Shown in pieces: positions 19,361 to 19,808 of a DNA stretch of 38,371 bases (the stretch's first letter is position 1; each line of letters begins with the position of its first letter). The notes under the pieces are model-generated. The model saw nothing but the letters and a program-made list of their open reading frames with translations. It was not told the DNA's origin and made no database searches. The stretch comes from a virus (Duplodnaviria; Heunggongvirae; Uroviricota; Caudoviricetes). The DNA is taken from the IMG/VR virus record IMGVR_UViG_2563366865_000004, positions 1-38,371 of that record. One strand, written 5' to 3'. The position numbers and the translations under genes are program-made.

Positions 19361-19808
19361 TGTTGGCTCCGTTTATCCGTTAAAAGGGATATAAGTTAAG
19401 TTATCCCGTGTAGGGTATAAGCCATTGTCGAGACCACTCATTGAATGGCCTCTGCAATAACCGATGTCTTTCCATCAGTCCGCCACCACAAAGAATCTTT
19501 TTTGCCATAAGGCAGGAGGTTCATCTTTCAGTGGCTGCCAGTGTTATTTCCCCACTTACTGGCTTGGGTTGTTTCGCTGTACTGCCGTTAATTAGTGACC
19601 AGAAATTAACTCCGGTTTCATTATCAAGCCCACCCGTAGATAGGCTTTGTAATGAACTGGCTCTTATCTCAACGCAGCCCCTTACCGCGCGCCAGATGCT
19701 CAACTTCAAGCATCAGCAATGAGATGTTTAATCTGGATTCACTCCAGAAGTGATCACCACCCTGTCTACAGAGCCAGATGTGAAGGATGATGAGTAGAAT
19801 TATCGCTA

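Follow-up and report, generated by a model that had tools for sequence, protein, structure and literature searches.

A gene-less interval between phage lysis and packaging genes: an apparently unoccupied accessory-gene bay bounded by a repeated hairpin

Lambdoid and P22-like phages differ in optional genes, known as morons or hot spots, that some of them carry between lysis and head genes and others cleanly lack; examples are rha/orf201 of P22 (between gene 15 (Rz) and orf80), genes 65-66 of Sf6 and gp73 of HK97. Here we analyse the same position in a virus of the class Caudoviricetes, the 38,371-nucleotide stretch of IMG/VR record IMGVR_UViG_2563366865_000004 (positions 1 to 38,371), which is called the window throughout. 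In the window, an interval of 448 bp (19361-19808) without a convincing gene separates Rz from an 80-codon open reading frame (ORF), orf80, which is followed by the small terminase gene. These bounds had been described in a first-pass annotation made from the sequence alone, and our analysis agrees with them. All coordinates are window positions unless an accession or locus is named, transcription runs along the minus strand, on which all the genes flanking the interval lie, and numbers such as L002 or L040 denote loci fetched for comparison. Compared with the known morons, the window represents a rare, fully empty state, and the same 448-bp state was seen in 3 of 70 comparable loci. The occupied loci also seem to differ from a classical moron, which has its own promoter and terminator, whereas here a terminator lies in a leader upstream of the accessory gene and a hairpin without terminator character, HP1, lies downstream of the gene.

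The closest described analogue of HP1 is the PeSLs of T4-type phages, conserved promoter and stem-loop motifs that flank non-essential genes. Each PeSL unites a terminator stem-loop with a strong sigma-70 promoter, many copies are present per genome, and recombination at these motifs deletes, inserts and swaps the intervening genes and forms mini-circles (PMC2839356, PMC4122927). HP1 resembles them in being a short conserved stem-loop motif that flanks non-essential genes in a variable region: one to three copies per locus flank the cargo, a hybrid copy exists and a 9-mer recurs at the cassette ends. In contrast to the PeSLs, HP1 has neither promoter-like hexamers nor a U-tract or terminator function, and its one to three copies per genome are confined to a single locus inside the late operon.

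Three other kinds of hairpin invite comparison. REP/BIME-type extragenic palindromes, and the stabiliser stem-loops between the cistrons of polycistronic mRNAs, are like HP1 imperfect palindromes of ~40 nt that lie just past stop codons and are transcribed within operons, and this placement would suit HP1 for shielding the upstream message from 3' exonucleases; HP1 differs from them in being phage-borne and of low copy number, and we know of no sequence similarity between HP1 and the REP consensus. The RNase III processing hairpins of T7-like phages also combine a two-part stem with an internal loop; they sit in narrow gaps between the genes of one long transcript, and the message upstream of them keeps a hairpin at its 3' end, but HP1 has a helix of only ~15 bp and a symmetric 2x2 internal loop, and the likeness is in shape only. 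Finally, in integrons as at the HP1 locus each cassette ORF has a hairpin at its 3' end, and attC sites and HP1 both show a conserved base, an upper stem that varies and folding that differs between the strands. HP1 has no R''/R' core, however, and no GTTRRRY was seen in it, its left border is only a 9-nt arm and its arrays reach at most two or three units; no integron integrase was noticed among the ORFs flanking HP1, where no systematic search for one was made.

Fixed junctions and vacant slots between Rz and orf80

Matches to the DNA of the interval at 93-99% identity occur in 206 phage records and in 2561 of 5426 complete E. coli genomes, and nearly all of the best ones are cut into two or three pieces by inserted genes. 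We fetched 95 loci through the orf80 gene, a member of Pfam family DUF2560, and through the BLAST matches, and mapped their breakpoints. Seventy of them reach from Rz to orf80, over a distance that varies from 304 to 1910 bp (median ~1100), and 66 of the 70 hold one or two accessory genes at fixed junctions. Two slots account for this pattern, with slot A alone filled in 41 loci, slot C alone in 9, both in 16 and neither in 4. The recurrent breakpoints lie at 19816/19808, at 19646/19654 (slot A), at 19613/19588-19598 (a variable patch, which can also serve as the right border of slot A), and at 19463/19461 or 19439 (slot C). Occupied forms were seen in P22, Sf6, epsilon34, HK620 and HK97, and the loci that share the 448-bp state of the window are L012, L077 and L093. 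Genes thus stand at fixed junctions in some genomes and are cleanly absent from close relatives, which is the pattern of a moron or accessory-gene site.

According to Pfam searches, the cargo of slot A comprises Rha (as in P22), three kinds of KilA-N protein (as in HK620 and HK97), a Tad2-like protein (DUF2829) and a T5orf172/GIY-YIG-like protein, and that of slot C comprises Phage_gp49_66 (Sf6 gene 66; in phage Huey it bears the label anti-CRISPR), DUF551 and a protein of 64 aa. When all the cargo ORFs were compared with the gap by tblastn, only read-through pieces derived from the flanks were returned, and no cargo remnant. Clean recurrent junctions, together with this lack of any cargo remnant, indicate that the interval is the unoccupied scaffold of an accessory-gene hot spot and neither a decayed nor a mis-framed gene. 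The degraded gene that the first-pass annotation had offered as one explanation is therefore not borne out, and the case that it had named against its own description, a conserved gene spanning the region and merely mis-framed in this copy, was not seen in the nucleotide comparison with relatives: alignment did reveal intact genes at the locus in relatives, inserted at the recurrent junctions. Its view that the interval lies at a junction between mosaic blocks was correct, and is the key to the region.

The junctions themselves carry a short repeat. At the slot A junction of the window (19646-19654, minus strand) there is a single copy of the 9-mer CATTACAAA, which forms the 5' outer arm of HP1-A, the HP1 copy next to slot A. 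We compared the left and right junction sequences of 16 distinct occupied loci, and in these the 9-mer is present at both cassette ends as a direct repeat, with BLAST blocks that overlap by 9-10 nt; slot A cassettes end at a stop codon just before HP1-A. A single 9-mer in the empty state and a double one in the filled state would be expected from loss of a cassette by exchange between the 9-mers or from single-crossover integration at this core. The slot C junction (19461-19463, minus strand) is also empty in the window. Loci L040 and L074 have a single HP1, a hybrid whose stem is of the A type and whose 3' flank is of the C type, and everything between the two hairpins is missing, which means that the region between the hairpins is dispensable and that the hairpins recombine.

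Slot A cassettes of every kind open with the leader TACCAGGATTT followed by a strong rho-independent terminator, AGCCTCGCATTCGCGGGGCTTTTT, and the window lacks this leader. In L004, L005, L001 and other loci the first ~230 nt of slot A form one leader that is common to Rha, KilA-N, Tad2-like and GIY-YIG-like cargo. The exchangeable unit seems to be the leader plus a gene, of which only the gene is swapped. No promoter-like site was found in the epsilon34 cassette.

Two further observations concern the contents of the slots. Known or suspected counter-defence cargo, namely Tad2-like (anti-Thoeris) and Phage_gp49_66 proteins, was found in slots A and C of L005, L021, L006, L007 and L015, and with such cargo the bay would behave, to judge by its gene content, as a small anti-defence and regulatory island. 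The fourth empty locus, from Salmonella phage SEN22 (L002), has an IS3-family element, annotated as a disrupted transposase, at the junction between Rz and a 50-codon ORF, orf50, that is discussed below (L002 784-1931, equivalent to window positions 19792-19795); SEN22 is the only named phage with an otherwise empty configuration.

HP1, a covarying hairpin on the late-transcript strand

Each slot is bounded on its 3' side by HP1, a 46-nt two-part hairpin that consists of a 5-bp outer stem (CAUUA/UAAUG), a 2x2 internal loop (CA/GA), a 10-bp inner stem and a short loop. HP1-A (19615-19659, minus strand; 58.9 bits, E=1e-13 with the covariance model R1 described below) is directly 3' of the slot A gene in relatives, and HP1-C (19419-19464, minus strand; 62.9 bits, E=8e-15) ends 58 nt before the orf80 start codon and departs from HP1-A in its inner stem by compensatory changes. 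The sense RNA of 19361-19668 folds far beyond shuffled sequences (z=-6.1, compared with z=-2.4 for the antisense strand). This excess is local, with z=-4.6 in the 116 nt before orf80 (19355-19470) and values near zero in the module that carries orf50 (z=-0.43, no better than shuffles) and in the spacer between the hairpins (z=0.01), and it is due to the two HP1 copies. Among the possibilities listed in the first-pass annotation, a regulatory or structured site is the one that survives, as two copies of a strongly covarying hairpin and two short palindromes.

Covariation was assessed in two sets of sequences. The first contained 26 distinct HP1 copies, including both paralogues, several alleles and three divergent phages, and was used to build model R1. 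In this set 95.6% of the cells form standard pairs, compared with 34-47% after a shift of the 3' partners by 1-3 columns, although many of the sequences are close relatives and the cells are consequently not independent events; in 9 of the 15 pairs both partners have changed, and the observed values were not reached in any of 500 shuffles. The second set came from a degenerate pattern scan of IMG/VR, which gave 120 further loci; R1, run on the first 100 of them, yielded 113 aligned copies (67 distinct) in an alignment that is fitted to the model. Here 94.9% of the cells are paired, and the six inner pairs that the pattern had left free vary as CG/UG/GC, AU/CG and CG/UA. Independent support for the covariation comes from a few divergent lineages, namely L015 (Citrobacter), where the neighbouring protein is only 45% identical, L029, L068 and the comparison of the A and C paralogues.

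The sense strand is the more stable one in 83 of 89 HP1 variants (mean -18.5 versus -14.0 kcal/mol, p=7e-15), an advantage that derives from frequent U-G pairs. HP1 thus combines compensatory substitutions with strand-specific stability, as structured RNAs in general do, in a sample of related sequences of which one alignment is model-fitted. Its pairing is under selection on the strand of the late transcript.

Applied to the 95 loci, R1 gave 148 sense-strand matches, one or two per locus, and a copy at the HP1-C position, always ending ~58 nt before the orf80 ATG, was present in nearly every locus; two weak antisense matches (~23 bits) are echoes of nearly palindromic copies. Across the 38-kb window it recovered the two HP1 copies only, the next match scoring 11.7 bits. 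Two other stretches of the window, 32153-32207 and 33535-33602 (E~1), were discarded as noise, as only the outer stem matches and both overlap ORFs on the opposite strand.

The position of HP1 relative to genes is as regular as its structure. In occupied relatives it is immediately 3' of the accessory gene, and 52 of the 104 distinct contexts recovered by the pattern scan have a reading frame, open for 40 codons or more, whose stop lies 1-5 nt upstream of the first paired base; in 29 of those 52 the gap is exactly 1 nt. The next start codon is often found 15-23 nt downstream. The genes upstream of HP1 are Rz or spanins and assorted small accessory genes, and those downstream encode DUF2560, an HNH endonuclease, small terminases and further accessory proteins. 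HP1 is followed by GAAAC or GGCUU and by no run of U, and for want of a U-tract it is, judged from its sequence, not an intrinsic terminator.

HP1 was also found in well-studied phages. In P22 the single copy (NC_002371 40306-40351) is partly covered by 'orf25', an annotated ORF of 25 aa. HK97 and HK022 have two unannotated copies each, and Sf6, HK620, Stx2 phage 2851 and ECP1 also carry the hairpin. Regardless of the type of packaging module, it always has lysis or accessory genes on one side and packaging genes on the other. No feature is annotated at HP1 in the HK620 and Sf6 records. HP1 is absent from Rfam 15, full-text literature searches on its sequence and related terms returned no description, and it is apparently undescribed.

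Several smaller observations accompany this distribution. P22 'orf25' (NC_002371 40329-40406; L217 2830-2907) overlaps the 3' half of HP1 and the next palindrome, a position which suggests that the ORF call is probably spurious and that what lies beneath it is structured non-coding DNA; 'hypothetical proteins' beneath HP1 in several other phage records resemble this case. Some IMG/VR contigs (L100, L184, L129, L135 and L142) hold arrays of two or three HP1 copies with single small genes between them. In L100 (581-1019) the gene between the copies is the DUF2560 gene itself, which suggests that orf80 may also be a cassette of the HP1 system. HK022 (L003 698-777) and HK97 (L008 697-776) retain the first 80 nt of orf80 (window 19281-19360) as a truncated remnant, so that the shared block there runs from HP1-A into a decapitated orf80; in HK97 the remnant sits upstream of the HNH gene gp74.

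Proposed role of HP1 and competing explanations

The explanation that we favour, and regard as reasonably probable, is that the late operon has an accessory-gene ('moron') bay here and that the interval is its non-coding scaffold, with both slots empty and with HP1 acting at the boundaries. In order of transcription the scaffold would be made up of the 171-bp orf50 module, HP1-A, a dispensable spacer, HP1-C, two TATCC/GGATA palindromes and the ribosome-binding site of the DUF2560 gene. HP1 would fold in the Q-antiterminated late transcript as an intercistronic stem-loop and serve there as a 3' stabilising, protective or processing structure. In this way it could insulate an inserted gene, allowing the cargo to be expressed and its message to be separated or stabilised with the downstream head genes undisturbed. 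As an element repeated within phages and shared among them, HP1 would moreover supply short homology for the gain, loss and swapping of cassettes, and the state seen in the window would be either the product of such a loss or a bay that was never filled.

Several points weigh against this explanation. The role of HP1 at the RNA level is one that we infer, and the mosaics from which the covariation is drawn are closely related. Having no U-tract and stems of ~15 bp in total, HP1 does not match an intrinsic terminator or the textbook form of an RNase III substrate, and its near-invariant outer stem and internal loop would equally suit a sequence-specific protein or a DNA site. The right end of lambda and the K-12 prophages DLP12 and Qin have no HP1 copy, and the hairpin is accordingly not essential to lambdoid late operons. 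Finally, this explanation assigns no role to the spacer or to the two short palindromes, which show no covariation.

The gap itself is ordinary, an empty form of a well-known variable region, and this settles the question on the gap. The new lead is the HP1 hairpin family, modest but real, which is found in model phages (P22, HK97, HK022, Sf6 and HK620) and in Stx2 phages, and which underlies unannotated DNA or probably spurious small ORFs such as P22 orf25. If HP1 does organise expression and exchange, it would explain how accessory genes, including anti-defence genes, are swapped so precisely at this site and how their insertion into the late operon leaves expression of the head genes unaffected, and it would provide a simple sequence landmark for accessory cargo in prophages. 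Anti-defence and regulatory genes (Tad2-like, Rha, KilA-N and gp49/66) would then be traded among phages by means of a small cassette system. The idea is directly testable in P22, since this phage has a single HP1 copy. A broader proposal, that temperate enterobacterial phages have in HP1 a structured boundary element of a class not described before, transcribed as a hairpin just behind the stop codon of each optional gene between the lysis and packaging modules and with roles in late-mRNA processing or insulation and in crossover, is one that we put forward tentatively and would not rely on; it would make the HP1 system the lambdoid counterpart of the T4-type PeSLs, spanning P22-like, HK97-like and Stx phages.

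Among the alternatives, the one that survives best, though we think it rather doubtful, is that orf50 is a genuine small membrane protein gene of the lysis region, in which case the non-coding gap would measure only ~300 bp. This ORF (19669-19821, minus strand) overlaps the Rz stop by 13 nt, has a hydrophobic N-terminus and matches phrog_11822 over its full length (residues 1-50 of 50, E=8.6e-38). It is annotated as Sf6 gene 65, as epsilon34 gp67 and as 'hypothetical proteins' in many E. coli genomes, and its 66 homologues, nearly all assigned to E. coli where a name is given, are mostly at least 84% identical. No indel falls within it in 35 alleles, compared with several in the adjoining non-coding DNA. 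Its substitutions, in contrast, are not those of a coding sequence. Among 46 homologous loci (27 distinct alleles) we counted 10 synonymous, 19 non-synonymous and 3 nonsense changes, spread over the codon positions as 10/10/12, with a low divergence that limits the power of the test. The controls from the same fetched loci were terS (the small terminase gene; first 216 nt), with 23 synonymous, 7 non-synonymous and no nonsense changes and codon positions of 3/1/26, and the 5' part of Rz, with 35/33/0 and 12/16/40; orf80 was dropped as a codon-bias control because the loci had been chosen by orf80 protein identity. The purifying selection and third-position excess of terS and Rz were thus not seen in orf50.

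Other properties of orf50 point the same way. Frameshifted, truncated and read-through variants are common among its homologues in the protein database, and the ORF is narrowly distributed and belongs to no Pfam family. Its ATG and Shine-Dalgarno motif (AGGA) fall within the last codons of Rz and are also found in phages without the ORF, and can hence be regarded as by-products of Rz. The ORF belongs to an optional mosaic module of 171 bp (19646-19816, minus strand), and many phages replace this module wholly, from 19816, two codons before the Rz stop, by the unrelated sequence GAAATAATTTTTTTGCAAATCACAAAG... The 50-codon ORF is therefore probably not a functional gene, and since it lacks a coding-type substitution pattern the first-pass description of the interval as having no convincing gene, only short ORFs, stands for its whole length. 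Position 19816 is a recurrent mosaic breakpoint at which phages with the orf50 module end Rz as ...CLR* and the others as ...CLK*, followed by unrelated sequence.

For the function of HP1, the main rival to an RNA-level role is that the hairpin acts as DNA, as a recombination or protein-binding site (attC-like, or the target of a structure-specific nuclease) that captures circular or linear cassettes. We consider this unlikely. It would account for the 9-bp direct repeat of the 5' arm around slot A cassettes, as left by a single crossover at a short core, and for the hybrid HP1 copies; the invariant outer stem and internal loop with a variable inner stem have an attC-like layout, and the cargo includes a GIY-YIG-like nuclease. 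However, no dedicated recombinase was noticed at the loci examined, where no systematic search was made, the left repeat is only 9 nt and not a hairpin, and the cassettes do not have a complete site of their own on both sides. The bias of the U-G pairs towards the sense strand fits RNA, but single-stranded DNA of one strand may show it too. Moreover, the junctions are explained equally well by homologous exchange in the conserved flanks together with slippage between the 9-mers.

It is still less likely, and in our view improbable, that the interval is a functionless leftover of accessory-gene deletion, conserved through recent exchange only. The near-identity of the relatives would fit such recent mosaic sharing, as would a spacer that is dispensable and without a structure signal and an orf50 module that evolves neutrally. 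Recent sharing does not, however, explain the compensatory changes of HP1 between paralogues and in divergent phages such as L015, and the fixed place of HP1 beside stop codons in dozens of contexts would be left unexplained.

An unannotated small RNA on either strand or a pac recognition site, the remaining proposals, are highly improbable, as the only signs of them are a weak terminator-like site and a marginal Rfam match, neither strand of the gap has a promoter-like site, and the same DNA adjoins unrelated packaging modules. HK97 and HK022 are cos phages, and the pac site of P22-like phages is located within the gene for the small terminase. The packaging site considered in the first-pass annotation is thus unlikely on comparative grounds, because HP1 and the DNA around it are common to phages with different terminases (Sf6-type and HK620-type pac terminases, and those of HK97 and HK022), and no known small RNA or tRNA was found with Rfam or ARAGORN. 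ARAGORN reported no tRNA or tmRNA gene in the whole window, in which Rfam gave no tRNA match either, and the covariance-model scan against Rfam 15 found nothing at gathering score in the window and only chance-level matches (E>=4.8) in the interval. One of these, to Proteo-phage-1 (RF03044; 19533-19568, minus strand; 16.8 bits, E=4.8), was followed up and set aside as probably due to chance: its score is far below the gathering threshold of 42, only the unpaired ends of the model (GAAAUAACACUGGCAGCC) are aligned, and the match is absent from relatives and from wider searches. In agreement with the earlier statement that the interval has no obvious terminator or tRNA, the scan for intrinsic terminators found no minus-strand site in the gap and a single weak plus-strand site (19498-19519), a count equal to the shuffle expectation (1.0). 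The promoter scan found two sites, both outside the gap and at shuffle level.

Spacer, palindromes and flanking genes

The spacer between the HP1 copies (19465-19614, minus strand) includes the variable patch (19588-19613), of which there are three alleles. It has no conserved ORF, as single-base indels and the replaced patch break every one, and it is missing from L040 and L074. All gap ORFs of at least 25 aa, on both strands, were scanned against PHROGs and Pfam, and only the 50-aa ORF matched any family; the 62-aa, 35-aa, 28-aa and 93-aa ORFs were rejected as genes, being disrupted in relatives by indels or insertion junctions.

Between HP1-C and the ribosome-binding site of orf80 lie two palindromes, HP2a (19401-19420, minus strand; TTATACCC-TACAC-GGGATAA) and HP2b (19372-19394, minus strand; TTATATCCC-TTTTAAC-GGATAAA). 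Their consensus, TTATCCCC-N4-5-GGGATAA, follows HP1 once or twice in many unrelated contexts, and within the 38-kb window the motif is found at this site only. Among 34 HP2 units 79% of the cells pair, which equals the value for shuffles, and the mismatches are uncompensated. HP2 would therefore be better described as a conserved sequence motif than as a proven RNA helix, and is possibly a DNA site; it may resemble inverted halves of DnaA boxes. An attenuator-like pairing between the two HP2 units was considered and dropped, HP2 being a recurrent tandem palindrome without covariation.

The genes on either side of the interval follow one another on the minus strand. Upstream are a Q-like antiterminator (21584-22072), a lambda-type holin (20733-21056), a lysozyme (20273-20749) and Rz (19809-20276), in which Rz1 is embedded (19850-20056). 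Downstream are orf80 (19118-19360; DUF2560, E=1e-43), the Sf6-type small terminase gene terS (18675-19115) and TerL (17266-18678). The Shine-Dalgarno sequence of orf80, GGAG at 19367-19370 (minus strand), was read from the sequence 6 nt upstream of the ATG at 19360, and this stretch is kept in all loci, including the class in which homology begins only at 19374.

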